From the IMG/VR virus record IMGVR_UViG_3300033004_000003, positions 1 to 53,646 of that record: a DNA stretch of 53,646 bases, one strand, 5' to 3'. A program made the translations under genes and the position numbers. This DNA comes from a virus. Its lineage: Duplodnaviria > Caudoviricetes. A model generated the notes under the pieces. The model searched no databases, had not been told where the DNA came from, and worked only from the letters and a program-made list of their open reading frames with translations. Every line of letters begins with the position of its first letter. The first letter of the stretch is position 1. Shown in pieces: positions 3,815 to 29,931 of this stretch.

Positions 3815-4291
3815 ATGGCGTACGCACCTAAACCCAAGATTGACGTAGCAGGCCACACAACGGAAGAGTTGTGCGAGCTTATCATGGACGGCATCATGCT
3901 CACGCAGATTGCGCGGGATTGGTGCGTCAGCAAAGCCGCTTTGCTCGACTGGATTGCGGCGGATGAGGATCGCGCAATGCGAGTCAGGGAAGCGCGCTCG
4001 ATTGCCGGCCATTCATGGGATGAAATGGCGGTTAAGGCGCTTGACGATCTGCCGAAAGACGCAACGCCGGCCCAAATTACCAAAGCCCGAGAACTTGCCA
4101 GCCACTACCGTTGGCGCGCATCGAAGATCTCACCGCCATACGCGGACAAGTCGCACTCCATCGTTGAAGCCACGATCAAGCAGGCCAAGCCTTTGTCTGA
4201 CTTGGAGGCTCTGGCAGAAATCGCGGAGCTTAGCCAGCAGCTGGGTGGAAAATACCAACTTGTCGAAGTGGTTGACGAGGATGAGCCTTAA
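3815..4291 (+). CDS. terS: Terminase small subunit (Sf6-like HTH type)
   Basis: EELCELIMDG..LTQIAR...WI...R.ARS...YRWRASKISPPYADK pattern; upstream of TerL. Confidence 0.75.
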   Translation: MAYAPKPKIDVAGHTTEELCELIMDGIMLTQIARDWCVSKAALLDWIAADEDRAMRVREARSIAGHSWDEMAVKALDDLPKDATPAQITKARELASHYRWRASKISPPYADKSHSIVEATIKQAKPLSDLEALAEIAELSQQLGGKYQLVEVVDEDEP

Positions 4292-5508: not shown

Positions 5509-5926
5509 AAACATCCCAATCCCCGTCGCCGCCCGTAAATGGGACTTCACACAAGCCGAGATTGGCGACAGCGTGGCGTTCATGAACGAGGCGGACGCTG
5601 ACAAGTTTGCCGCCGCTGTTCGCCACTATAGCCGCGTTCACGGCACAGACTGGGGCGCGAAAAAGCTGGCGGCTGGCGAGAAGTGGCGTGTGTGGATCGT
5701 CGCCGGCAGAGGCCGCAAGCCGGTCAAACTGGAGCCGGTCAAGTTGCCAAAACTGCAAGTGTTTGCCGCACCTACGCCGTTGACTGACGAGGATTTGCAG
5801 ATCGTCGTGGACTACCGGCGCGGTGAGGATGTGACGCTAGCAAAGCCAAGACAGTATGAAATGGGCGAGCCGGAGGCGGAAGAAACAACGCCAACGGGGC
5901 GGCGTAAGAGGCTTATTCCGGAGTAA
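5498..5926 (+). CDS. Hypothetical protein
   Basis: TAATG coupling to terL; IPIP...WDF.Q.EIGDSV N-terminus. Confidence 0.65.
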   Translation: MFDKNIPIPVAARKWDFTQAEIGDSVAFMNEADADKFAAAVRHYSRVHGTDWGAKKLAAGEKWRVWIVAGRGRKPVKLEPVKLPKLQVFAAPTPLTDEDLQIVVDYRRGEDVTLAKPRQYEMGEPEAEETTPTGRRKRLIPE

Positions 5927-7572
5927 TGGCTAACCCGGCCATCATGCGCGTGCTCAATGACATGCGCGCGAAGCGGAAGCAGCAAATCAAAGCGGAGTGC
6001 GAGGCGAACTTATATCAGTTCGTCAAGCATTTCTGGCACATTGTAGAGCCTGCAAATCCCCTCATCGAAGGGTGGGTTATGGAGGCCATCTGCGAGCATT
6101 TGCAGGCAGTGACAGAAGGAAGGATACTGCGTCTTATCATCAACGTGCCGCCTGGTTGTTCCAAGTCACTATTATCGTGCGTGTTTTTTCCGGCTTGGGA
6201 ATGGGGCGCAAGGGGCATGACTTCCATACGCTATGCCTCGTTCAGTTACACAAGCACCCTGACTGAGCGTGACAATGGCCGATTGCTCCATTTGATCAGC
6301 AGCCCGCTTTATCAGGAATATTGGGGCGAGCGCCTTAAGGTATTTGGCGGCAAGGTCAAGGTTGAAAACAACAATACCGGGTGGAAACTCGCCACATCCA
6401 TAGGTGGAGTGGGCACCGGAGAGCGCGCGGACAGGTTGTTGTTGGACGATTTAAATAACGTCAAGGAATCTGAATCAAAAGCGATCTTGACCACAACTAA
6501 TCAGTGGATACGAGAGGTTATGCCGACGCGACTTAATCATTTGGCGCGGTCTTCTATCATCGCCATCCAGCAGCGAACGTCAGAGGAGGATTGCACAGGA
6601 ACGCTGGTTGCGGCGCGTGACGATTGGTGTTGGCTCATGGTGCCGATGAAGTACGACCCAATGCGCCATTGTAGCACGGAGATTGGCTGGTCTGATCCGC
6701 GCACGGTCGAAGGAGAGTTGTGCTGGCCAGAGCGGTTTCCGCCTGATGAGGTCGCCAAACTAGAGCGCGAAATGGGGCCTTACGCTTGGGCCGGCCAGAT
6801 GCAACAATCCCCAAGCCCGCGCGGCGGCGGAATTATCAAGACCGAATGGTGGCAGGACTGGCCGTCCAAGCAAACCCCACCGCTGGATTACATCGTGGCA
6901 TCTCTCGATACCGCCATGACTGAAAAGGAAGAGAGCGACTATTCCGCGCTGACGGTCTGGGGCTCGTTCCAGGATAGCGGCGCGATCATAGGCGACGAGT
7001 TCGGCGGTTATGACTTTGTGGCCAGCAACGAGCCGCGCGACCGAAGTCTGTTCGGCCAGGAAAGCCGAGAGCGCATGTCTGTTGTGTCAGCTTCTCTGCC
7101 AAAGATATTGTTGCTGAATGCCTGGCGGGAGCGGCTGGGACTGCCGGAGCTGGTGGAGAAGGTTATTTCAACTTGTATCCGTTACCGGGTGGACGTTTTA
7201 ATTATCGAAAATAAAGCACACGGCCATGCGGTTAACCAGACTATACGCGAAATGCTTGCAAGAAAACCCTTTAGCGTTGTAATGTATGATCCGCGTCAAT
7301 ATGGCGACAAATCCGCGCGTCTATACTCGATACAGCATTTGTTTTCTGAGGGTCTGATATATGCTCCGTTGGAGAAAGCCTGGGCAGATATGGTGATCCA
7401 AGAGGTTGCGAACTTCCCGCGCGCCAAGAATGATGACCTAGTTGACACCGTGAGCCAGGCGCTCCAGCACCTACGACAGCGCGGTTTCGCGCCTCGCCGT
7501 GAGGATGCTGTATCTGGCGTTACCGATCGTCTGCGCCACAAGGGGACGGCTAAGCCGCTGTATAACACATGA
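5926..7572 (+). CDS. terL: Terminase large subunit
   Basis: LIINVPPGCSKS (Walker A), GERADRLLLDD (Walker B), RNase H-like nuclease SLDTA...DYSA...IIENKAHG...FPRAKNDDLVD. Confidence 0.95.
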   Translation: MANPAIMRVLNDMRAKRKQQIKAECEANLYQFVKHFWHIVEPANPLIEGWVMEAICEHLQAVTEGRILRLIINVPPGCSKSLLSCVFFPAWEWGARGMTSIRYASFSYTSTLTERDNGRLLHLISSPLYQEYWGERLKVFGGKVKVENNNTGWKLATSIGGVGTGERADRLLLDDLNNVKESESKAILTTTNQWIREVMPTRLNHLARSSIIAIQQRTSEEDCTGTLVAARDDWCWLMVPMKYDPMRHCSTEIGWSDPRTVEGELCWPERFPPDEVAKLEREMGPYAWAGQMQQSPSPRGGGIIKTEWWQDWPSKQTPPLDYIVASLDTAMTEKEESDYSALTVWGSFQDSGAIIGDEFGGYDFVASNEPRDRSLFGQESRERMSVVSASLPKILLLNAWRERLGLPELVEKVISTCIRYRVDVLIIENKAHGHAVNQTIREMLARKPFSVVMYDPRQYGDKSARLYSIQHLFSEGLIYAPLEKAWADMVIQEVANFPRAKNDDLVDTVSQALQHLRQRGFAPRREDAVSGVTDRLRHKGTAKPLYNT

Positions 7573-7751
7573 AACAGCCCGCTTTCACCGGGCATTGGTA
7601 TGCGCCTGAACAGCTAGGCTACGTGCGCGTGCCAGAGAAATGCACAGCCAAGGTTGAAGTCTACCGCGCGCCGGATGGCAAAATGCGTGAATGGGATGCC
7701 GAAAAAGGCCGTCCGCTGGTATTTGTTGACGATAATGCGGGGATTAGATGA
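7569..7751 (+). CDS. Hypothetical protein
   Basis: ATGA coupling between terL and portal. Confidence 0.6.
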   Translation: MKQPAFTGHWYAPEQLGYVRVPEKCTAKVEVYRAPDGKMREWDAEKGRPLVFVDDNAGIR

Positions 7752-9961
7752 GTTCTACACTAGGCGACCTCCTGGCATCCGCGAACATTCGGCAAACCCC
7801 CGCGCCGATTGCCGCGTTGCCACAACCTGATCTTGAGATTGCCATTGAAGGCGATGTTGCAGACCATAAGCTGGACCCGAAAACCGGCGTTATGGAGATC
7901 GAGGGGCCTGACGGAAGCATTACCATCGACTTCGCCCCTAATTTGGGCGGCAAGCTGTCCGACAAGTTCAACGACAATCTGGCTGTCTCGGGGAACATTG
8001 AATACGGCGCTCTGGCTAATGAGCTGATTAACGAGATTGATAGCGATCTAGGCTCTCGCTCCGAATGGATGGACCAGCGCGAGCAAGGGCTTGAATTGCT
8101 TGGTCTGAAGATCGAGAACCCACGCGGCGATACGGGCAATTCATCCGCGCCGCTTGAAGGCATGAGCACCATTCGCTCGCCTACGCTGCTGCAAGCCGTG
8201 CTGCGGTTCCAGGCCAATGCGCGCGGTGAATTGCTGCCAGCCATGGGGCCGATCAAGGTCATTGATAATTCGGCGGGCGGAACTGGCATTGCCGACGAAT
8301 GGGCGGAAATCCTAGAGCAAGACCTGAATATATACCTGACGCAGCGTTGCCCGGAGTATTATCCTGATACTGACCGCATGCTGTTCTATGTCGGTTTCGG
8401 CGGTTCTGGGTTTAAGAAGGTCTACCATTGTCCGCTGCGTCGCCGCCCTGTGTCCGAGAGCGTTGATGCGGCTGATCTGATCGTTGACGCCTCCGCTACC
8501 GATCTGCGCAACGCACGCCGCATAACGCATCGCATCCGCATGAGAGATAGCATGGTTAAGCGCATGCAGATTGCGGGAATTTACCGCGATGTTGCGTTAT
8601 CACAGGCCAGCTATAATCCAGATCAGGACGAAGTAATCGAGGCGCGTATCCAGGGCATCGACGTGATGCCGCAGCGGCCAGAGGACAACGACCGAACGAT
8701 CTATGAAATTCTGTGCGAGCGAGACTTTGGCGAGCATCCCAACCGAATGCCGCTGCCGTACAAGATCGTTCTTGACCGCGATAGCCAACAAGTCTTGGAA
8801 ATCCGCCGCAACTGGCGCGAAGACGATCCGATGTACATGCCGGTTAATATGTACGTGCGCTATCCGTACATCGAAGCAATGGGCATTTATGGCCTTGGCT
8901 TGCTGCATACAATCGGCAACCTGACAAAAGCCACGACGGCTGCTATCCGTGAAATGCTGGACGCCGGTATGTTCGCCAACTTCCCCGGTTTTGTGTACTC
9001 CGAGGGTGTCAATAGGCAGGAAACAAACGAGTTCCGTATTCCGCCAGGCGGAGGCATGCGCGTGCAGACGAACGGGCAGGACATCCGCACCGCATTGATG
9101 CCGTTGCCGTACAAAGATATATCTTCTGGGCTCATGTCGCTTGTTCAGGAGCTAATGAGCGCCACAGATAAGCTATCCGGCACGGCGGAAATGCCAACCG
9201 GCGAAGGTATGCAGAACGCGCCAGTAGGAACGACGCTGGCGATTATCGATCAGGCGTCTAAGGTGCTCGATGCCGTACATAAGCGTCTCCACGCGGCGCA
9301 GGCTGAAGAGTTCCGGCTGCTGAAAGATCGCCTTCTGGAAGACCCGGAGGCGTTTTGGCGCCATAATCCGGACGCCAGCACGAACTGGGACAAAGAGACG
9401 TTTGTCCAAGCTCTGAACCTGGTTGATCTGGTCCCGGTTGCGGACCCGAACACGCCGACGCATACGCACCGTCTGATGAAGGTCATGGGACTGATCCAGC
9501 TTGCCCAGCAGATGCCGCAAATGTTCAACATTCCAACTGTCATCGAGCATTCGCTGCGTCTGATCGGGTTCAACAATCCTAAAGAGTTCATGAACGACGG
9601 CACCCAGCCGCAGCAGCCCAATCCGGACATGATGAAGGCGCAGCTTGAACAGGCCAAACTACAGCAGCAGGGGCAAATCGCGGCGGCCAAGATGCAATCC
9701 GAACAGAACAAGTCTAAGTTGGAGCTTATCAAGGCTCAATTGCAGCAGAAAACCGACGTGATGGAAATTCAGGGCAAGCAGCAGATAGAAGCCGGATGGC
9801 TGCAGATCGAGGCAGGACGGCAGCGCCACGAAAAAACAAAGGATGGCGCTGCAATGGTTAGCGATGCTATGGAACACATGCAACCGGGATTGGGCGGATT
9901 GGCCGCTCCACCGCAAGCCGCGAGCGCCGGCCCTAGCGCTCCTGTTGGAGTGACACCATGA
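7748..9961 (+). CDS. Portal protein (P22-like, Gln-rich C-terminal barrel)
   Basis: Position after TerL; GSGFKKVY, YGLGLLH, LDAGMFANFPG, APVGTTLA...HKRLH motifs; coiled-coil tail. Confidence 0.9.
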   Translation: MSSTLGDLLASANIRQTPAPIAALPQPDLEIAIEGDVADHKLDPKTGVMEIEGPDGSITIDFAPNLGGKLSDKFNDNLAVSGNIEYGALANELINEIDSDLGSRSEWMDQREQGLELLGLKIENPRGDTGNSSAPLEGMSTIRSPTLLQAVLRFQANARGELLPAMGPIKVIDNSAGGTGIADEWAEILEQDLNIYLTQRCPEYYPDTDRMLFYVGFGGSGFKKVYHCPLRRRPVSESVDAADLIVDASATDLRNARRITHRIRMRDSMVKRMQIAGIYRDVALSQASYNPDQDEVIEARIQGIDVMPQRPEDNDRTIYEILCERDFGEHPNRMPLPYKIVLDRDSQQVLEIRRNWREDDPMYMPVNMYVRYPYIEAMGIYGLGLLHTIGNLTKATTAAIREMLDAGMFANFPGFVYSEGVNRQETNEFRIPPGGGMRVQTNGQDIRTALMPLPYKDISSGLMSLVQELMSATDKLSGTAEMPTGEGMQNAPVGTTLAIIDQASKVLDAVHKRLHAAQAEEFRLLKDRLLEDPEAFWRHNPDASTNWDKETFVQALNLVDLVPVADPNTPTHTHRLMKVMGLIQLAQQMPQMFNIPTVIEHSLRLIGFNNPKEFMNDGTQPQQPNPDMMKAQLEQAKLQQQGQIAAAKMQSEQNKSKLELIKAQLQQKTDVMEIQGKQQIEAGWLQIEAGRQRHEKTKDGAAMVSDAMEHMQPGLGGLAAPPQAASAGPSAPVGVTP

Positions 9962-13218: not shown

Positions 13219-13839
13219 ATGGCGAATACTTTCGCACCATACGGGTTTCGCGCTACCGCCCTTCTCGGGTACGGCTCCCCGAACTACGCCGTATCTCAGC
13301 GCCGCATTCTCAAGACCAACAGCACCGCCATCTATAAGGGCGATCCGGTCGTTCAGCTTTCCTCTGGTTACATTGCCCAGGCCACCGCCGGCACCACGCA
13401 GATCGCGGGCATTTTCGACGGCTGCGAATACCTGAGCGTGTCTCAGGGCCGCACCGTTCGCTCCCCCTACTGGCCGGGCTCTGACGCCGCCGCTGACGTG
13501 GCGTGCTTTATCATTGACGATCCCACTGCGGTTTTTGCGGTTCAGTCTGGCAATGGTGGCCCCATCGTGCTGGCAGACGTTGGCCAGAACATCAACTTCG
13601 CGATCGGCACGGGCAACACCGCCAACGGCATCTCTGGCGCCTACGCCGACTTCGCCACGCTCAGCCCCTCCACCACGACGCTGCCGTTCCGCGTACTCAA
13701 TTTCGCGGGCAACTCTGGCTACGTCACTGGCGACGGCCCGCCGCAAATTGCCGGAAATGGTTCGGATGGCAGCACTGCCTACAACACCGTTTACGTCACC
13801 TTCAATAACCAAGACTACAAAGTCCTGACGGGCATTTAA
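13219..13839 (+). CDS. Capsid decoration/cement protein (putative)
   Basis: MANTFAPYGFR...IYKGDPV...IAGIFDGCEY...IIDDP; immediately before MCP. Confidence 0.7.
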   Translation: MANTFAPYGFRATALLGYGSPNYAVSQRRILKTNSTAIYKGDPVVQLSSGYIAQATAGTTQIAGIFDGCEYLSVSQGRTVRSPYWPGSDAAADVACFIIDDPTAVFAVQSGNGGPIVLADVGQNINFAIGTGNTANGISGAYADFATLSPSTTTLPFRVLNFAGNSGYVTGDGPPQIAGNGSDGSTAYNTVYVTFNNQDYKVLTGI

Positions 13840-13853
13840 GGGGAGCATGACAG

Positions 13854-14768
13854 ATGCCTATTAATCTATCCTCGATCAAGAACGAACTGCTCCCCGGCCT
13901 TCGCGCTCTTACCGGCAAGTATGATCAAATCCCCCGCGAGTGGGACCAGATTTTCGACGTCGGTAAATCTGAGATGGCCCTGGAACGCACCGTCGAAATG
14001 GCGTACCTCGGCTATGCCCAGCTCAAGACCGAAGGCGCGGCTACCACGTTCGACAACTCGGCCGGCGAGCGCTTCACCTACAACCAGGAGCACACCGAGC
14101 TTGCGCTTGGTTACGCCATCACCCGCAAGGCGGTGGACGATAACCTCTACAAGCGCCAGTTCAACCCCGCCAACCTGAACATGATGCAGTCGTTCAATCA
14201 GACGCAGGAAATTCTTGCGGCGAACGTGCTGAACACTGCCGGCGTGTACAATGCGGCTGTGGGCGGTGACGGCGTTTCTCTGGTTAACGCCAGCCATCCG
14301 GTTGATGGCGGCACCTACTCCAACACCTTCAGCACGGCGGCTGATCTGAACGAAAGTTCCCTGCTGAACGCGATGATCCAGATCCGTACTGGCTTCGTCG
14401 ATCAGCGCGGCCTGAAGCTTTACGCCCGTGGCCGAAAGCTGGTCATCCCGCCGCAGCTTGAGCCGACTGCTCTGCGCCTCATCAAGACCGCGCTGCGCCC
14501 CGGCACCGCCGACAACGACATCAACGCCATCATGTTCACTACTGGTGGTCTGAAGGACGGCTATCTGGTCGATGACTACCTGACCAGCCCTTATGCCTGG
14601 TTCCTGCTGACCAACATCCCCGGCCTGCTCTACCTGGAGCGCGTGCCGTTCGAGATGGATATGCAGGTGGACTTCACCACAGATAACCTTCTCGTGAAGG
14701 GCTATCACCGGTACTCCTTCAGTTACTACAATCCAAGGGCCATCTTCGGCACCTTCCCGACCTCGTAA
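13854..14768 (+). CDS. Major capsid protein (HK97 fold)
   Basis: 304 aa; KTEGA...ALGYAITRKA.DDNLY...DGVSL...HP...DL.ESSL...KLVIPPQL...YLTSPYAWF; strongly biased codon use. Confidence 0.9.
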   Translation: MPINLSSIKNELLPGLRALTGKYDQIPREWDQIFDVGKSEMALERTVEMAYLGYAQLKTEGAATTFDNSAGERFTYNQEHTELALGYAITRKAVDDNLYKRQFNPANLNMMQSFNQTQEILAANVLNTAGVYNAAVGGDGVSLVNASHPVDGGTYSNTFSTAADLNESSLLNAMIQIRTGFVDQRGLKLYARGRKLVIPPQLEPTALRLIKTALRPGTADNDINAIMFTTGGLKDGYLVDDYLTSPYAWFLLTNIPGLLYLERVPFEMDMQVDFTTDNLLVKGYHRYSFSYYNPRAIFGTFPTS

Positions 14769-14780
14769 GGAGAGCAGATA

Positions 14781-15284
14781 ATGGCTGGCCCTGGTAGCAC
14801 TTATACCGGCCCCCTCATCTCGGGGCCTATCTGGAACCCTGGAGACTTTCGTGGCCCGGTTAACACCGGCCTTGTCCTCCTGACGCAGACGGTTACTCTG
14901 ACGCAGAACGGCGCGACTGCCGTTACCACGCCGGTTTACCTGCCCGCCGGTTCGCAGATCACGGATTTCAACATCGATACCACAACCGCGTGGAACTCTG
15001 GAACATCCGATCTTCTGACCATCGGCCTCGCTGCTGCTGGGACTGACTTCCTGAGTAACACTAGCGTTGCCGCCACTGGCCGCGCCAGCGTCGGTGCAGC
15101 TGGTTCAACCGTCCCGTACACTGCCGCGCAGCTCTCCGCGATGAAGTCGGTTGGCGCTACTACTGGCAACGGAGTGCCGATCTACATCACAGTAACGCCG
15201 GCCGGCACCACTGCGACGACTGGCTCTACTACCGTTACCGTCTTTTATATCCAGACCGTCCAGTTGAACGCTGGCGAGGCTTAA
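14781..15284 (+). CDS. Virion structural protein (head decoration/spike-like)
   Basis: Thr/Gly-rich beta protein LPAGSQITDFNID.TTAWNS after MCP. Confidence 0.65.
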   Translation: MAGPGSTYTGPLISGPIWNPGDFRGPVNTGLVLLTQTVTLTQNGATAVTTPVYLPAGSQITDFNIDTTTAWNSGTSDLLTIGLAAAGTDFLSNTSVAATGRASVGAAGSTVPYTAAQLSAMKSVGATTGNGVPIYITVTPAGTTATTGSTTVTVFYIQTVQLNAGEA

Positions 15285-15296
15285 TAGGAGCTTATC

Positions 15297-15737
15297 ATGG
15301 CATACAAACATGGCGGCGATGTTCACAAGGCCGTAAAGGAAAAGTCGATGCACCGCATTGCGAACCCGAAGCACCGCAAGACTGGTGGCCGCGCCGAGGA
15401 AGAGGAAGACGGCAATTCTGGCGTCGATACTCCGGAGCCGGATACCGACATGTCCTACACTTATCAGTCCAACGTCACCAAAGAGGCGAAGGACGAGAAG
15501 AAAAAGGGCGGCGCCATCAAGAAGGTCGCCAAAAAGAAGGGCGGTGAAGTCGCCAAGAAGAAGCATGTCGGTGAAGTCGAGGGCGAGGCCAAGAAGCACC
15601 GCCTGGACCGCCCTGGCCGCAAGCGCGGTGGCGGTGTTGGCGCCGATACTTCCCCGCTGACCACTGCCGCCAATACCAGCGAACGCCGTGGCCCGTCCAA
15701 GGCCGACGACGATCGGGGGATCACGGGGGAAGAGTAG
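15297..15737 (+). CDS. Charged low-complexity protein with five GG motifs; probably extended by -1 frameshift to 15976
   Basis: AGGAG RBS; YKHGGDV, RKTGGRA, KKKGGAI, KKKGGEV, RKRGGGV. Confidence 0.8.
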   Translation: MAYKHGGDVHKAVKEKSMHRIANPKHRKTGGRAEEEEDGNSGVDTPEPDTDMSYTYQSNVTKEAKDEKKKGGAIKKVAKKKGGEVAKKKHVGEVEGEAKKHRLDRPGRKRGGGVGADTSPLTTAANTSERRGPSKADDDRGITGEE

Positions 15738-15976
15738 CCCTTCACCGCAAATCCGGTGGCCGTGCAGACGGCCATTCGGGCGAAGGGCACGATAAGCCGG
15801 AAAAATGGATCGCAGGGGCAATAAAACACCCTGGCGCGCTCCATAAGGCGCTCCACGTTCCAGAGGGCGAGAAAATCCCGGCCAAAAAGCTGGAAAAGGC
15901 TGCGAATTCGGATAACCCTACACTCGCCAAGCGTGCTAATCTGGCTAAGACGCTTAAGGGCCTGCACAAGGGCTAA
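15728..15976 (+). CDS. -1 frame extension encoding small basic domain (EKWIAGAIKHPGALHKALHVP...LAKRANLAKTLK)
   Basis: Frame open 15575-15976 with no ATG/GTG/TTG; G GGG GAA at 15725-15731; downstream stem GCCCTTC/GAAGGGC. Confidence 0.65.
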   Translation, partial: GRVALHRKSGGRADGHSGEGHDKPEKWIAGAIKHPGALHKALHVPEGEKIPAKKLEKAANSDNPTLAKRANLAKTLKGLHKG

Positions 15977-15991
15977 TTTCTTGGAGGTCTG

Positions 15992-16333
15992 ATGCCTAAT
16001 CCATTTTACGCGACGGTAAGCACCACTGGAACTTCCACCGTTTGGCTGGCGGATTATCGTAACGCGCCGTTTAACGTGAGCGTGCAGGTATATGTTCCGG
16101 GCGGTACTACCGTTTCGTACGAAGTGGATTTCACGCTCGACGATCCGAACCTTCCCTATCCGAGCCTCCCGCCGCAAGAATGGACTGCGCTGGCACAGTT
16201 CCCGGCAGGTTCCACCACAACGATCACGGCGGCGATTACCAATCCGATCGTCGGGCTTCGTCTCAACGTGGCGTCGATTTCTGGCGGTCCTGTTTACTTC
16301 AAGATCATCCAGGGCGACTTTATCGGCACTTAA
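15992..16333 (+). CDS. Virion structural protein (beta-rich)
   Basis: GGAGG RBS; YEVDFTLDDP...W...PIVGLRLNV. Confidence 0.7.
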   Translation: MPNPFYATVSTTGTSTVWLADYRNAPFNVSVQVYVPGGTTVSYEVDFTLDDPNLPYPSLPPQEWTALAQFPAGSTTTITAAITNPIVGLRLNVASISGGPVYFKIIQGDFIGT

Positions 16334-16345
16334 GGAGGGTGTTAG

Positions 16346-17050
16346 ATGAGCAACACTCTCGGAGGCATGTCGGGCACATATAACTTCTCGCCCGCCTCTT
16401 CGCAGCTAATCCTCTATGCGTTTGGCCGGTGCGGCATACGTGGCCCGCAGTTGCAGGCCGAGCATATGCGCGACGCTTACACCGCCATGAACATGATACA
16501 GGCGGACTGGTCTAACGATCAGGTAAATCTCTGGACCGTCGAGCTTATCACCGTGCCTCTGGTATACGGCCAGACGGCCTATACAGTCCCCAGCAATGTC
16601 ATTCTGATCCTCGATGCCTACCTGGAAATGAACCCAGGCACATCGGACCCGATTGATCTCTATATGTATCCGATCAGCCGCACGGAATACGCGGCATTTC
16701 CGGACAAGGTGACGCCAGGCCGGCCAACGGTCTATTGGTTTGACCGCACGCTGTCGCCAAGCGTGTATCTGTGGCAACCGCCAGTAGATGCGTCGTGGAC
16801 GTTTAACATGTATTGTTGCCGTCAGATACAAGACGCGAACACGCAGAACCTGCAACAGCCGGAAATTCCGTATGGCTATCTCAAGGCGTTTTCCGATGCC
16901 TTGAGCGTTGAACTGGCCATGATCTATGCGCCGGATAAGGTGCCGATGCTGCAAGCCGCCGCCGCCGCGTCTTACAAGCGCGCCAAGGACATGGGTAGCG
17001 AGCGGGCTTCGTTGTACCTGTTCCCAGGCATGGGGAACTACTACAGATGA
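16346..17050 (+). CDS. Head-tail adaptor protein (putative)
   Basis: MNMIQADWSN..VNLWT...ISRTEYAAFPDKVTPGRP...YLWQPP. Confidence 0.7.
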   Translation: MSNTLGGMSGTYNFSPASSQLILYAFGRCGIRGPQLQAEHMRDAYTAMNMIQADWSNDQVNLWTVELITVPLVYGQTAYTVPSNVILILDAYLEMNPGTSDPIDLYMYPISRTEYAAFPDKVTPGRPTVYWFDRTLSPSVYLWQPPVDASWTFNMYCCRQIQDANTQNLQQPEIPYGYLKAFSDALSVELAMIYAPDKVPMLQAAAAASYKRAKDMGSERASLYLFPGMGNYYR

Positions 17051-17676
17051 GCTGGCGTCCACATGGCAGGGCATACGTAAGAAAACATAATCTCCAAGCT
17101 TGGGGGTCTTGTGATCGTTGCTCTATGTGGTGGAATCGAGACCAGCTAACCTTTCAATTTGAATGGTCATCGACCCAGCTTTACAATAAACGTCTGCTAG
17201 TCTGCCCTATCTGCCTGGATAAGCCCTTCGAGCACTACCGCGCCATCATCGTTCCCCCCGATCCGGTTCCGGTGATGAACCCGCGCCCTGATGTGTATCA
17301 GGTGCAGCAGGACGGCCCGACGAACCTTATGGACCAAAACCAGGAACTCCTAACCGACACCAACGGAGCGCCAATACTTGCGACATCTACGGGAACGCAG
17401 AATACGCCGCCATATCCATTTGCTGGCTTCACGATGCTTCGCGCTGATGGTGGTGGCCCAATCCAGCAAATCGCCGTGCGGGATGATGCGTATGCCGTTC
17501 AAGCCACGTTGCAAAACGACGTACAGGTAACAGATACGACGGGAAATCCGGTGTTTTCAACGACACCTTCGACAAATCCCAACACATCGTATAATAATCT
17601 GAACAGGTTCAACAATCCGCCGGGGCAAGTTAACGCTCAGTACGCATTTCCGGTCGTTTTGGATATAGAGGATTAG
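17047..17676 (+). CDS. Zinc-finger (CxxC...CxxC) protein with C-terminal extension
   Basis: CDRC...CPICLDKP...PDPVPVMNPRPD. Confidence 0.7.
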   Translation: MSWRPHGRAYVRKHNLQAWGSCDRCSMWWNRDQLTFQFEWSSTQLYNKRLLVCPICLDKPFEHYRAIIVPPDPVPVMNPRPDVYQVQQDGPTNLMDQNQELLTDTNGAPILATSTGTQNTPPYPFAGFTMLRADGGGPIQQIAVRDDAYAVQATLQNDVQVTDTTGNPVFSTTPSTNPNTSYNNLNRFNNPPGQVNAQYAFPVVLDIED

Positions 17677-25252: not shown

Positions 25253-25723
25253 ATGAGCGAAGTCCGCATAGCAACGCCAGCCGACCGTGACGGGATGATT
25301 GATCTGCTGCACATGATGTACGCCGAAAATGGCGTTGCGTCATTGAGCGTGCAAAAGATGTTGGCGTTTCTTGATCGAGGGTTAGCGCGCGATTACTCGA
25401 TCATCGGCATTGTCGAAGATGAAGGTGTGATAAAGGCGAGCATTGGGCTTTTCCTGCACCAATGGTGGTACAGTGAAGATTATCACGTTGAAGATACGTG
25501 GTGTTTTGTGCATCCAGATTACCGGAAGTCAACTTATGCCAAGGACTTGCTGAAGTTCGCCAAGAAATGCGCGGATGATCTTGATATGCAACTGCTGATT
25601 GGCATCCTGTCTAGCGAGAGAACTGCGGCCAAGGTTCGGCTTTACGAGAAAGAATTTGGTCCTTCAATGGGATGTGGATTTGTTTACCCGCATCCTCGGG
25701 CAACTGATAAGGAAGTCGCGTAG
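25253..25723 (+). CDS. GNAT-family acetyltransferase
   Basis: VRIATPAD...FVHPDYRKSTYAKDLLKFA...RLYEK. Confidence 0.8.
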   Translation: MSEVRIATPADRDGMIDLLHMMYAENGVASLSVQKMLAFLDRGLARDYSIIGIVEDEGVIKASIGLFLHQWWYSEDYHVEDTWCFVHPDYRKSTYAKDLLKFAKKCADDLDMQLLIGILSSERTAAKVRLYEKEFGPSMGCGFVYPHPRATDKEVA

Positions 25724-28700
25724 TGGGCAAAGGTTCAAGCACGACTACCAGCAAGACGACGCCAGCCCCGCAAGCAGAAGCGATGGGCAACCAGGCATGG
25801 AGCGCGGCGCAGTCTGCGGCGTCTAATCCATACCAATATTACCCAGGCCAGCTTGTCGCCAATCTCAACCCCGACCAGATGCAGGCGTTTAATACCGTCG
25901 CGCAGTCTCAGGGTATTGCAAATCCGTATATCAATGCAGCGTCTCAGCTAACCAGCTCCGCTTCCCAACCAATTGGCGCGTCTCAGATCAATCAGTACAT
26001 GAACCCGTATATCGGGGATGTCGTTGGTACAACCGCCGCCGAGATTAACCAAAACAACGCCATTCAACAGAACCAGCTACAAGGCAACGCAGCGGCACTT
26101 GGCGCCCTCGGCGGCAACCGCGTGGGCATCGCACAGGCGGCGCTCGCCAACCAGCAGGCAATGGCGGAAAATCAGACTTTATCAGGACTGTATCAGGGCG
26201 GATACAATACCGCGTTGCAGGCCGCGCAGACACAGAACGCGCAGCAGCTACAGGGCGCTTACGAATACGCCAACCTTGGTACTGAGGCGCAGACAGCGGC
26301 GCTTACCGGCGCGAACGCTCAAATCCAGACGGGCGGCATCGAGCAGCAACAGCAACAGAACATCCTGAACCAAGCCTATTCGCAGTGGCTTGGAGCGCAG
26401 CAATACCCGTTTCAGACTGGCCAGTATCTCACGAATACGGCGGGTACACTGGCGGGGCTGTACGGTGGGACATCGTCCACGACAATTCCGGCGCCGTCTA
26501 CGTTCTCGCAGATTGTGGGTGGTTTGACTGGCGTTGCTGGTATCGTCGGCGCTGCGCGCGGCTCCAAAGTCGGTGGACGGATTAATAATGATCTCGGCGG
26601 CTTGGATGGATATGACAGCGGCGGGTTTGTCGGGCCTACTCAATTCGCAGGGCCAGAAGCGCCTCCGCCCTATGATCCAAATAAAAACGTTGAGGCTAAA
26701 GCGTTTGGCGGACGTATTGGCTATGACGATGGTGGATTTGTTGGCCCTACGCATTTCTCTGGTCCGCAAGCTCCACCGCCGTATAACCCCAATAAAAATG
26801 TTGAGATGAAAGCCGATGGCGGACGCATTGGCTACGATGGCGGCGGCGGTATCCCGTACCAAATTGGCGGCATACAGGCTCAAGACCTAACTGGGATGTC
26901 CCATCCTGTTGGATATGTATCAAGCGCTGGCACGGCTGGCGCTACACACTTTGCTGGTCCGCAGGCTCCGCAAGGGTACGATCCGAACAAAAATGTAGAT
27001 CAATCTTCCGGTTTGTCGAAGCAACAAGTGACAGATTTGGGAAGCCTATATGAAGGCGCAAAAAATTACATCAATGGAGCATACGGCCCGACGATGGGGG
27101 GAGGCATAGGAGGCGGGACCAGCGATGCAGCCATGGTTGCTCATCAAGGAGGCCAAAAATCAGGAGGTCGTGTAGGTCGCGCATCTGGCGGTCAATCGGG
27201 CAATACGCCTTCCACGGGCGGCTTGTCTGGCCTTACCGCGTCTCTGTCTAACCCGACCATGACAGAGGGGCAGCAGATTGAGAACTACCAATTCCTGTCG
27301 CCAATGATATCAACAGGCCGCGCGCCGGAAGTAGGGCAGCAGCAGCAACAGCAGCAAGAAAGCCCGCTGCAAGAGGAACAAGCCGAGGAACAAACGCTCG
27401 CCTCTATGGCTGGCCATGCTCATGGCGGACGTGCTGCAAAGGCTGGCGGTGGAAGTCTAGGCGCGCTGCCTACGCCGCAATATGTAGGCACTGGCCCCGC
27501 ACAAACGGCCCCGCAGCCGACAAGCACGGCGGGAACGCAACCCACGTCTTGGGGCAATGTGCAGATGCCATCTGCGCCGATGCTGGCGGCTCCTCAAGGC
27601 GCTGCGCCGGGCACGGGACAACTGCCAGCACTCGGCGGACAAGCTGCGCAGAATTTTGCGGCCAGTTACACCGGCTCGCAAGACCCATACGCGGCATACA
27701 TACAGAGCCTTACCGGCGCCAATCCGTCCGCTGGCAACCGTGCGCCGGGAGTGAACGCGACGACTGCATCAGCAACACCCGCAACCACGGTATCTCCCGG
27801 TTTGGCGGCGCTACTCAAGTCTTGGGGGGTTAATGCATCGGGCATGAAGTCTGGCGGTCGCGCTGGCTATGACGTGGGTGGCGATGTAGCGAATACGCCG
27901 CAAGATTTGGGCAGCACTGCCACGCCAGCCCCAGTTACTGCAACGCCAATTCCGGGCGTGTCGCCAGACTACGTTGCCCGCGTAAACCACATCGAGAGCG
28001 GCGGAAATCCTGCCGCGACTAGCTCGACCTCTACAGCTTCCGGCTTGGGGCAGATTACCGTCCCGACTGCTAAAGCGCTCGCCCCCAGTTTGGCTGGACT
28101 AAGTGACCAGCAGGTGCAGAAGATGGTCCAGCAGCCCGCTGTATCCAACGATCTAACTGCGGAGCTTGCCAAGAAAAACGCCGCATATCTCACGGCAAAT
28201 AATCTGCCTGCCAATGACGGAACTGTTTACCTCGCCCACAATTTCGGTGCAGGCGGGGCCAAGGCATTGCTGACTGCTGATCCGAATACACCAGTTGAAA
28301 ACGTGCTGCCGAAAGAGGACATTACGGCAAATCCCGATCTGGAAGGCAAGACAGTCGGACAAGTCATTGCCAGCCGTTATGCCGAAGTTGGCGCGAAAGT
28401 TGCTCAAAACACCGCCCAGCAGCCGAACTACGGTGGGAACCAGACCGCGACGGACACAAGTCCACTGCCTCCCATCGGTGGAGATCAGGGGCTTGCCACA
28501 TATCAGCAACAGGCTGGAAACGCTCAATACAACTTGACGCAGCCGCAACAGACTGAGGTTGACAAGTTTGCTAATTCGCCGTGGATGGCGCTGGCACAGG
28601 CTGGGCTTGCCACTATGGCCGGAACATCGCCGTTTGCGGGGGTGAACATCGGTGCTGGTGGTCTGGCGGGGCTGCAATATCTGCAAAGCACGCAGGGCCA

Positions 28701-29931
28701 AGAGCGCGCCAATGCTGGGTTGCTTGCGAATATCCAGCAGAACCAAGCAGAATTGCAGCAGCGTGGCCTTGGGCAAGTTTTGCAGGGCGTGCAGGCTGGA
28801 CAGAATGAGCAGCAAATCCGCGCCAATCTCGAGCAAACGATTATCAACGCAAATCCTAATTACACTCAGGCTCAGGTTGCAGCGGAAGCACAGAACCTTA
28901 TCAACGCCGTCACAAATCAGAGCGGCTCTCTTGGCTACAATCCGCCTGTCCAGGGACCGCAGATGCCTCCTGGCATTGTTCAGGGCGGCAATGTCACGCC
29001 GGCCACTCCTGCACCGGTTGTTACGCCACAGCCTGCCGCGCCTGCTCCTGCGCCGCAAACGACAACGGGCGCGGTAGGGCCTGCCCCGCAAGCTCCGCAA
29101 CAGCCATATGTTGCCGCTACGCCGCAATTCGCGCAATCCGCAACGGGCATGCCTCCGGTTGGCGCGGCGACGATCGACACGTCTGCGCCGTCTCCGATCG
29201 GCAACGGGACGCTGCCGCTTGCACAGGCGTACCAGAAGGCTCAACAGATGAGCATTGTCCCGCAGCTAAACACTGCGGCACAGTCTTTTTATTCTCGCAT
29301 GGAACCTCTGATGAACCGTCAGGGCGCCGTCGAGTTGCAGAAACAGGGCAACGCAGCCGCGCAGCAGATGCAGAACATGGATGAACTGGCGGCAGAGGCG
29401 GCTCAAATTCATACCGGACCGGTGACGGGGCAGTTCGTCGCTCATGCGGTTCAGGCTTATGAGGATATTTCTAGCGCTTTTGGATTGCCGATTGACCAGT
29501 CAATCACCGCAAGCTCTGACGCAAGCCAAGTTCTGCCGAAGCTCTCCGCAAACCTGTTGGCCACTATCGGGCGCATGGGGTCTGACGTAGGTGGCGCTGA
29601 AACGCTACGTATGATGGGGCCGGCTGTTCCGACGTCCGCAAACACCGTGTCAGGCATCCCGAAACTAGTGCAAGTTTACAATACCATGAGCCAGCGAACC
29701 ATGGCGCTCGGCAACTATGTTAATGCTGCAGTGTCTCAAAATACGATGACTTACGCGCAGGCTATCGGCGCCTTCAACCAGCAATATCCGCCCGCAATGT
29801 GGGCATCGCACGTTACGCCATTGGCGTTACCTGACAATGTTGCCGCGTTGAAGCCTGGTTTCGCTTACCAAGCGAACGGCAATTATGCTATATGGAATGG
29901 GCAGAGCTTCCAACCCATGAGCGGACAATAA
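25723..29931 (+). CDS. Internal virion/DNA-ejection protein with lysozyme-like (SLT) domain
   Basis: MGKGSSTTTS start; YMNPY...ALGGNR; HIESGGNP...ASGLGQIT...YLAHNFGAGGA muramidase motifs; about 12 GG motifs. Confidence 0.8.
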   Translation: MGKGSSTTTSKTTPAPQAEAMGNQAWSAAQSAASNPYQYYPGQLVANLNPDQMQAFNTVAQSQGIANPYINAASQLTSSASQPIGASQINQYMNPYIGDVVGTTAAEINQNNAIQQNQLQGNAAALGALGGNRVGIAQAALANQQAMAENQTLSGLYQGGYNTALQAAQTQNAQQLQGAYEYANLGTEAQTAALTGANAQIQTGGIEQQQQQNILNQAYSQWLGAQQYPFQTGQYLTNTAGTLAGLYGGTSSTTIPAPSTFSQIVGGLTGVAGIVGAARGSKVGGRINNDLGGLDGYDSGGFVGPTQFAGPEAPPPYDPNKNVEAKAFGGRIGYDDGGFVGPTHFSGPQAPPPYNPNKNVEMKADGGRIGYDGGGGIPYQIGGIQAQDLTGMSHPVGYVSSAGTAGATHFAGPQAPQGYDPNKNVDQSSGLSKQQVTDLGSLYEGAKNYINGAYGPTMGGGIGGGTSDAAMVAHQGGQKSGGRVGRASGGQSGNTPSTGGLSGLTASLSNPTMTEGQQIENYQFLSPMISTGRAPEVGQQQQQQQESPLQEEQAEEQTLASMAGHAHGGRAAKAGGGSLGALPTPQYVGTGPAQTAPQPTSTAGTQPTSWGNVQMPSAPMLAAPQGAAPGTGQLPALGGQAAQNFAASYTGSQDPYAAYIQSLTGANPSAGNRAPGVNATTASATPATTVSPGLAALLKSWGVNASGMKSGGRAGYDVGGDVANTPQDLGSTATPAPVTATPIPGVSPDYVARVNHIESGGNPAATSSTSTASGLGQITVPTAKALAPSLAGLSDQQVQKMVQQPAVSNDLTAELAKKNAAYLTANNLPANDGTVYLAHNFGAGGAKALLTADPNTPVENVLPKEDITANPDLEGKTVGQVIASRYAEVGAKVAQNTAQQPNYGGNQTATDTSPLPPIGGDQGLATYQQQAGNAQYNLTQPQQTEVDKFANSPWMALAQAGLATMAGTSPFAGVNIGAGGLAGLQYLQSTQGQERANAGLLANIQQNQAELQQRGLGQVLQGVQAGQNEQQIRANLEQTIINANPNYTQAQVAAEAQNLINAVTNQSGSLGYNPPVQGPQMPPGIVQGGNVTPATPAPVVTPQPAAPAPAPQTTTGAVGPAPQAPQQPYVAATPQFAQSATGMPPVGAATIDTSAPSPIGNGTLPLAQAYQKAQQMSIVPQLNTAAQSFYSRMEPLMNRQGAVELQKQGNAAAQQMQNMDELAAEAAQIHTGPVTGQFVAHAVQAYEDISSAFGLPIDQSITASSDASQVLPKLSANLLATIGRMGSDVGGAETLRMMGPAVPTSANTVSGIPKLVQVYNTMSQRTMALGNYVNAAVSQNTMTYAQAIGAFNQQYPPAMWASHVTPLALPDNVAALKPGFAYQANGNYAIWNGQSFQPMSGQ

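Follow-up and report, generated by a model that had tools for sequence, protein, structure and literature searches.

A startless basic domain joined to a phage head-module protein by a probable programmed −1 ribosomal frameshift

Locus and reading frames

The window, i.e. the whole stretch of DNA analysed, is a complete virus record of 53,646 bp (IMGVR_UViG_3300033004_000003) flanked by direct terminal repeats. Its head module contains the genes for the large terminase (5926–7572), the portal (7748–9961), the major capsid protein (13854–14768; Mu gpT-like, phrog_371) and an SU10-type adaptor (16346–17050). ORF0 lies in this module, with the major capsid protein on one side and the adaptor on the other. 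A 1402-aa protein (25723–29931) has PHROG matches to DNA ejection protein at its N-terminus and to transglycosylase over residues 731–895, which would fit an internal core protein of the T7 gp16 kind in a podovirus-like virion. Tape-measure and sheath families were not found in a scan of ten window ORFs longer than 400 aa, and the genome content is podovirus-like. The locus had been read as a podovirus head gene from the sequence alone; the bounding capsid and adaptor genes and the T7-like ejection/transglycosylase protein agree with that reading.

ORF0 (15297–15737; plus strand, as for all junction features given below) encodes a basic, Lys/Gly-rich protein of 146 aa with the motifs HRKTGGRA and RLDRPGRKRGGGVG. 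It ends in ...DDDRGITGEE, followed by the stop codon TAG at 15735–15737. The open stretch of the −1 frame, 15575–15976, contains no ATG, GTG or TTG, as the earlier reading had reported; near-cognate codons are missing as well, with no CTG, ATT, ATC or ATA from 15575 until the ATC at 15809, which comes one codon after the invariant Trp in the domain encoded in this frame. The −1 extension (15731–15976) comprises 81 codons (15731–15973) and TAA at 15974–15976, and encodes a linker containing HRKSGGRA and then a conserved basic domain of 57 aa (15803–15973; KWIAGAIKHPGALH...). The echo between HRKSGGRA in the −1 frame and HRKTGGRA in ORF0, which had been remarked on before, is present.

A short motif recurs in the window at 15372–15395, 15614–15640 and 15749–15772, as HRKTGGRA and GRKRGGGVG in ORF0 and as HRKSGGRA in the −1 linker. 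Elsewhere it was seen as HRKYGGDV at the C-termini of free-standing domain proteins and as RKSGGR, repeated many times, in relatives of 450–540 aa. This recurring sequence could be a linear motif for binding or processing.

Pfam and PHROG give no function for ORF0 or its long relatives, a PDB sequence search with ORF0 gave no match and a tblastn search of ORF0 against 50,697 phage records likewise gave none. A DNA search of 13800–17100 against cultured phages returned one record (MW202675), in which the capsid gene alone matched. Peptide patterns retrieved no ORF0 relatives from viral contigs; these were reached instead through the domain and the capsid protein.

Slippery heptamer

The heptamer G GGG GAA is located at 15725–15731, in phase with ORF0 as had been described, with the Gly codon GGG at 15726–15728 and the Glu codon GAA at 15729–15731, three codons ahead of the stop. 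It is an in-phase slippery sequence that permits tRNA re-pairing in the −1 frame. The heptamer alone is no better than chance, with 11 occurrences of GGGGGAR in the window against 11.2 expected; its phase, position and conservation do exceed chance. In the head genes of the window GGG makes up 12.8% of Gly codons and NCG makes up 34% of NCN codons.

In the PRFect paper (PMC10885494) GGGGGAA is documented as the slippery motif of actinophage tail-chaperone frameshifts, where it is the sole sequence of the 'fivetwo' motif class, for about a thousand SEA-PHAGES frameshifts, and where tRNA-Glu is described as pairing with GGA through G:U. The earlier statement that this motif is a slippery site of phage tail chaperones is thereby borne out for actinophages.

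Junctions in related phages

Relatives were collected from viral contigs by a domain search (best 80 of 393 relatives used) and by a capsid-protein search (best 80 of 272 relatives used). In L084, the closest informative relative among those used (88% capsid-protein identity), the junction reads ACG GGG GAA TAC TAG and is followed by the same structure as in the window. A larger group of relatives has ORF0 homologues of 95–144 aa which end in ...HRLDRPxRK...TPAGRxVxxGES* and whose junction is NCG GGG GAG TCN TAA/TGA GCCG.... The arrangement NCG GGG GAR NNN stop, followed by a hairpin, was counted by hand in at least 41 distinct contigs including the window, and the spacing from GGG to the stop is invariably three codons. 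Several contigs have a −1 frame that is open only from 9 nt ahead of the G-run, so that the shift must fall within 22 nt.

A further G-run, the SD-like GGGGGA at 15715–15720, lies upstream in the window. It had been pointed out before; the sequence is indeed there, but L084 has CGTGGT in its place and it is not conserved in 20 other unique junctions. It was rejected as a conserved stimulator and is probably incidental. A slip at this first G-run (15714–15720) was likewise rejected as the conserved site, since L084 is without the run and has a −1 frame stop there, just upstream of where the window has GGGGGA. Because the −1 frame of L084 opens 12 nt before the second G-run, it is this second run that was taken as the slip site.

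For a census of junctions, every ORF0 homologue in the retrieved loci (recognized by the RLDRPxRK motif) was taken and collapsed to unique 210-nt junctions. All 29 unique junctions whose −1 domain is startless have an in-phase G GGG GAR (in five of them a GTG, two codons before the Trp, is the only start), and none of the 21 junctions arranged otherwise has it; the junctions are related by descent and are not 50 independent events. The 21 others have the domain with its own ATG, an in-frame fusion, the domain in the 0 or +1 frame, or no domain. Five close relatives keep the ...PAGRxVxxGES* tail without the domain and have a terminator and a different gene downstream. Among domain-less relatives the G-run is broken synonymously: TCG GGA GAG in L104, CCC GGC GAG in L109, CCG GGT GAA in L144, TCG GGC GAA in L145 and L146, and GCT GGA GAA in L147. 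The signal is therefore kept across relatives but has disappeared from those that lack the downstream ORF. The association of the heptamer with the startless domain is the pattern predicted for a functional slippery site. A comparison of homologous loci had been proposed as a check on the slip site and the structure; by this census the former is conserved, and a predicted downstream hairpin is kept as well.

In L053 a single ORF of 176 aa contains an ORF0-like part (37% identity, E = 1e-14) followed by the extension domain (81% identity, E = 9e-30). This single ORF is colinear with the predicted trans-frame product, so that the predicted architecture exists as an ordinary protein.

As a separate observation, L104, L109, L144 and L145–L147 carry another conserved small gene in the slot of the domain, about 100 nt past the ORF0 stop and after a terminator (MTAAWTRKEGKS.SGGLN.KGR...HSETGGTLKAPTKD...).

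Downstream RNA structure

A stimulatory RNA structure is predicted at 15737–15788, beginning 5 nt after the heptamer. In its outer stem GCCCUUC (15737–15743) pairs with GAAGGGC (15782–15788), and an extended GGUGGCCGU/ACGGCCAUU hairpin is enclosed. The fold of 15725–15800 has a minimum free energy (MFE) of −34.1 kcal/mol (z = −2.77), and three of 200 shuffled sequences fold as well. The sequence-only reading had described an outer stem around two hairpins, formed by the pairings ACCG (15744–47)/CGGT (15754–57) and GGCCGT (15758–63)/ACGGCC (15768–73). All of these sequences are found where they were placed, and the outer stem and the GGCCGT/ACGGCC pairing are part of the MFE fold; the small ACCG/CGGT hairpin is not, its place being taken by a CCG/CGG pairing and a longer inner helix.

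The structure is common to the window and L084, with one UA-to-CG compensatory pair, while the other relatives, in both subgroups, have a 9-bp hairpin beginning 6 nt after the heptamer. In the 11-sequence subgroup pairing extends to 100% of the hairpin cells, with covariation at one pair (AU in five and CG in four distinct rows); the score of this hairpin was matched by ten of 500 shuffles, and slid registers were 21–82% paired. The covariation is modest, amounting to one compensatory pair per group. Eight relatives were also folded individually: seven 51-nt junctions gave MFE values of −19.1 to −21.2 kcal/mol and the longer junction of L084 (79 nt) gave −34.8 kcal/mol. The z-scores over these eight range from −0.8 to −4.0, and three of them (L020, L037 and L161) are unremarkable at −0.8 to −1.4. 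By prediction, a downstream structure thus lies at the distance of about 5–9 nt from the slip site at which a stimulator is sought.

A G-run can also be read as a site of transcriptional slippage, in which RNA polymerase would add a G within the run of five and a share of the mRNAs would encode the fusion. The site is a homopolymer and an added G would yield a protein of the same architecture, but five G residues are far below the lengths of the A/T runs that support slippage. Productive transcriptional slippage is known on A/T runs much longer than five. The conserved hairpin 5–6 nt downstream and the conserved GAR codon are, moreover, features of ribosomal −1 frameshifting, and transcriptional slippage is considered very unlikely here.

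Natural variation

Contigs of four wetland metagenome runs were compared with the window over 15400–16100. A contig from another sample representing a variant strain (X3 record 7, 893 nt) covers 15432–16100 with ten substitutions and no gaps; X4 record 11 covers 15663–15737 with zero differences; X2 record 3 is identical to the window and may be its source. No insertions or deletions were found in the contigs of the four runs over 15400–16100, a count that refers to assemblies, in which minority length variants of the G-run would escape. A homopolymer error had been named earlier as something to exclude, and at the level of assembled contigs the region of the G-run is free of indels.

The substitutions change their reading frame along the locus. 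Variants at 11 positions between 15431 and 15683 were assessed in frame 0: eight are synonymous and the other three make up one replaced codon. Between 15763 and 15880 none of the eight variant positions alters the protein of frame −1, and every one alters that of frame 0. From these patterns, frame 0 is the frame under selection as far as 15683 at least, and frame −1 from 15763 at the latest, a position that is 14 codons upstream of the domain Trp and within the startless stretch. The −1 ORF is accordingly without an initiation codon of its own and under selection at the protein level.

These data bear on two other explanations. If the frames were the product of a sequencing or assembly error, the true DNA would be one ORF; if the locus were a decaying pseudogene, the domain would be dead. 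Homopolymers are error-prone and the window is a metagenome assembly. Against this, the same frames are present without gaps in contigs from other samples and in 40 other viral contigs, and purifying selection acts on the domain, in which all eight changes are synonymous and which shares 74–86% identity with 47 aligned homologues. An error or a pseudogene is hence scarcely credible.

The domain might instead be translated independently, from a non-canonical start or by termination–reinitiation, to give a free small protein and no fusion. Relatives do exist in which it is a separate gene: its ATG overlaps the ORF0 stop as ATGACTGA in L007, L042, L157 and L038, and in others it follows a terminator and an SD, or an SD alone; L044 and L046 carry a startless domain without a G-run. 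In the window, however, no cognate or near-cognate start precedes 15809, which is already past the invariant Trp, and the substitutions at 15763 and 15790, ahead of the Trp, are synonymous in the −1 frame. Independent translation also leaves the perfect link between G-run and startlessness and the fixed spacing of the hairpin unexplained. It is judged improbable.

Extension domain

The domain belongs to a family of 1626 homologues of 31–100 aa, all of which are unnamed or annotated as 'hypothetical', and matches phrog_15706 and phrog_20603. An AF2 model consists of four helices (pLDDT 71.8). Elsewhere among the contigs the domain occurs on its own, at a C-terminus or within Pro-rich proteins of 450–540 aa with repeated RKxGGR; the free-standing genes among relatives confirm the earlier remark that it is a stand-alone gene in related phages. 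A tblastn search of the domain against phages gave nine weak matches, none with the present arrangement.

A Foldseek search of the model against the PDB gave nothing at E ≤ 0.001 (best E = 1.3). The best match in a profile search against the PDB was cargo protein 1 (gp45) of crAss001 (7qog_M), which covered 29 residues with E = 0.095 and is not significant; it is a lead towards capsid cargo proteins only. The ESM Atlas gave only unnamed phage clusters, together with a VP2-like cluster at 0.88, under the lead threshold of 0.9. The Pfam family PF25632 (Fusello_VP2_Capsid) scores 21.5 bits against the window domain, below its cutoff of 27, over profile positions 2–20 of 74, so that the domain is not placed in this family; 38 of 48 aligned homologues reach E ≤ 0.01. 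The likeness of the domain to fusellovirus VP2 is weak and N-terminal, and a distant kinship between the two is possible. SSV1 VP2 is described as a DNA-binding virion protein in PMC3367457. Like VP2, the window domain is small and basic and would be associated with the virion.

Proposed mechanism

A programmed −1 ribosomal frameshift at the junction of ORF0 and the domain is the preferred reading, with an estimated probability of about 0.86. It had been put forward by the sequence-only reading, and both the comparison of relatives and the natural variation strongly support it. The cis-elements, their conservation, the switch of frame in selection and the colinear single-ORF homologue are directly seen. 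We infer that the shift itself is made by the ribosome, as follows. Most ribosomes on ORF0 would stop at the TAG and release the 146-aa basic protein. A fraction would pause at the RNA structure (15737–15788) while positioned on G GGG GAA and slip one base back, tRNA-Gly re-pairing from GGG to GGG and tRNA-Glu from GAA to GGA by G:U; alternatively, only the P-site tRNA-Gly would slip. Shifted ribosomes would resume with AGA at 15731 and end at TAA 15974–15976. The trans-frame protein would have 226 aa, made up of ORF0 residues 1–144, one E or G and 81 further residues, with the predicted junction ...ITGERVALHRK... after a tandem slip or ...ITGGRVALHRK... after a P-site-only slip.

We also infer an efficiency and a function for the shift: through it the virion may receive a head-associated protein, possibly one that binds DNA or the capsid, of which a set minority of copies bear the domain. 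The fixed ratio of two products put forward in the sequence-only reading is hypothetical and found no support of its own here. There is weak support for ORF0 being a disordered basic head-associated protein, a minority of whose copies would receive a small basic binding module through the frameshift. Since the domain of some relatives has its own ATG, the fusion is dispensable for the function of the domain.

Comparison with known systems

The −1 signals of dnaX and of the IS3/IS911 type consist of a heptamer and a stem-loop or branched structure 5–6 nt downstream. They use an A AAA AAG site with an upstream SD, whereas the window has a G-run and no conserved upstream SD. The tail chaperones of actinophages, as PMC10885494 describes them, share the heptamer and the G:U re-pairing, and one start likewise gives a short and a C-terminally extended product. 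There the gene is flanked by tail tube and tape measure, whereas here a basic Gly/Lys-rich gene lies between the capsid protein and the adaptor. The lineage of the window is, in contrast to the phages of that source, uncultured, from wetland and freshwater, and podovirus-like; most relatives of the window use GGGGGAG, and the overlap ends three codons after the slip and is followed by a strong hairpin. A tail-chaperone gene would be expected in a long-tailed phage, with the major tail gene on one side and the tape-measure gene on the other, which is not where ORF0 is found.

Frameshifted C-terminal extensions of virion proteins are described, in PMC5009743, for gene 10A/10B of T7 and T3, for Lactobacillus phage A2 and for the Listeria phages A118, A500 and PSA. 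These are likewise cases of recoding in a structural module that places an extra C-terminal domain on a fraction of the molecules; in them it is the gene for the major capsid or tail protein that is shifted, often with an Ig-like extension, whereas the extension here is small, basic and helical. ORF0 is not a capsid gene of the T7 10A/10B type: the capsid protein has a gene of its own further upstream, and ORF0 is without a Pfam or PHROG match. A frameshift in this gene family was not described in the literature covered. The mechanism itself is familiar, and what is new is its use in this gene family, for this extension domain and in this phage group.

Other junctions and implications

Several relatives show other arrangements at the same junction. 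In L002 (3635–4168) a 108-aa ORF0 homologue ends at an in-frame TAG (3959–3961), after which the domain continues in the same frame without a start codon, and a small UAGCC/GGCUA hairpin takes in the stop; this junction is a candidate for a stop-codon readthrough or suppressor-dependent version. On two different contigs, L044 and L046 (3956–4168 in both), the startless domain is in the +1 frame relative to ORF0 and there is no G-run; these read AAGACTGA where L007 and L042 have the overlapping start. In L054 (3960–4003) and L010 (3950–4003) an ORF0-like sequence is followed by a −1 domain with no nearby start. The former reads CAC CGG GGG TAG, with the G-run right at the stop, and the latter GCG AAG AAG TAG; both junctions may be alternative slip sites.

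It is conceivable, though doubtful at present, that the junction of ORF0 and the domain is a hotspot at which related phages dose one basic domain by different routes. The routes meant are the G-run −1 frameshift (41 contigs), the possible slips of L054 and L010, the candidate readthrough of L002 and the +1 startless arrangement of L044 and L046, together with coupling by overlapping starts, separate genes and full fusion. If so, the stoichiometry of the domain to its disordered basic carrier would be a selected trait in a large group of uncultured phages, and the domain would be VP2-like, internal to the capsid and associated with DNA or cargo.

At this locus gene callers would report either a 146-aa ORF followed by some 240 nt of 'non-coding' sequence or a fragment that lacks a start. 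With at least 41 viral contigs carrying the arrangement, a protein isoform would be missing from the annotations of a widespread group of freshwater and wetland phages. The family would also provide a clean natural experiment, in which one and the same junction can be compared between phages that have the domain and phages that lack it, the slippery run being present only where it is needed.
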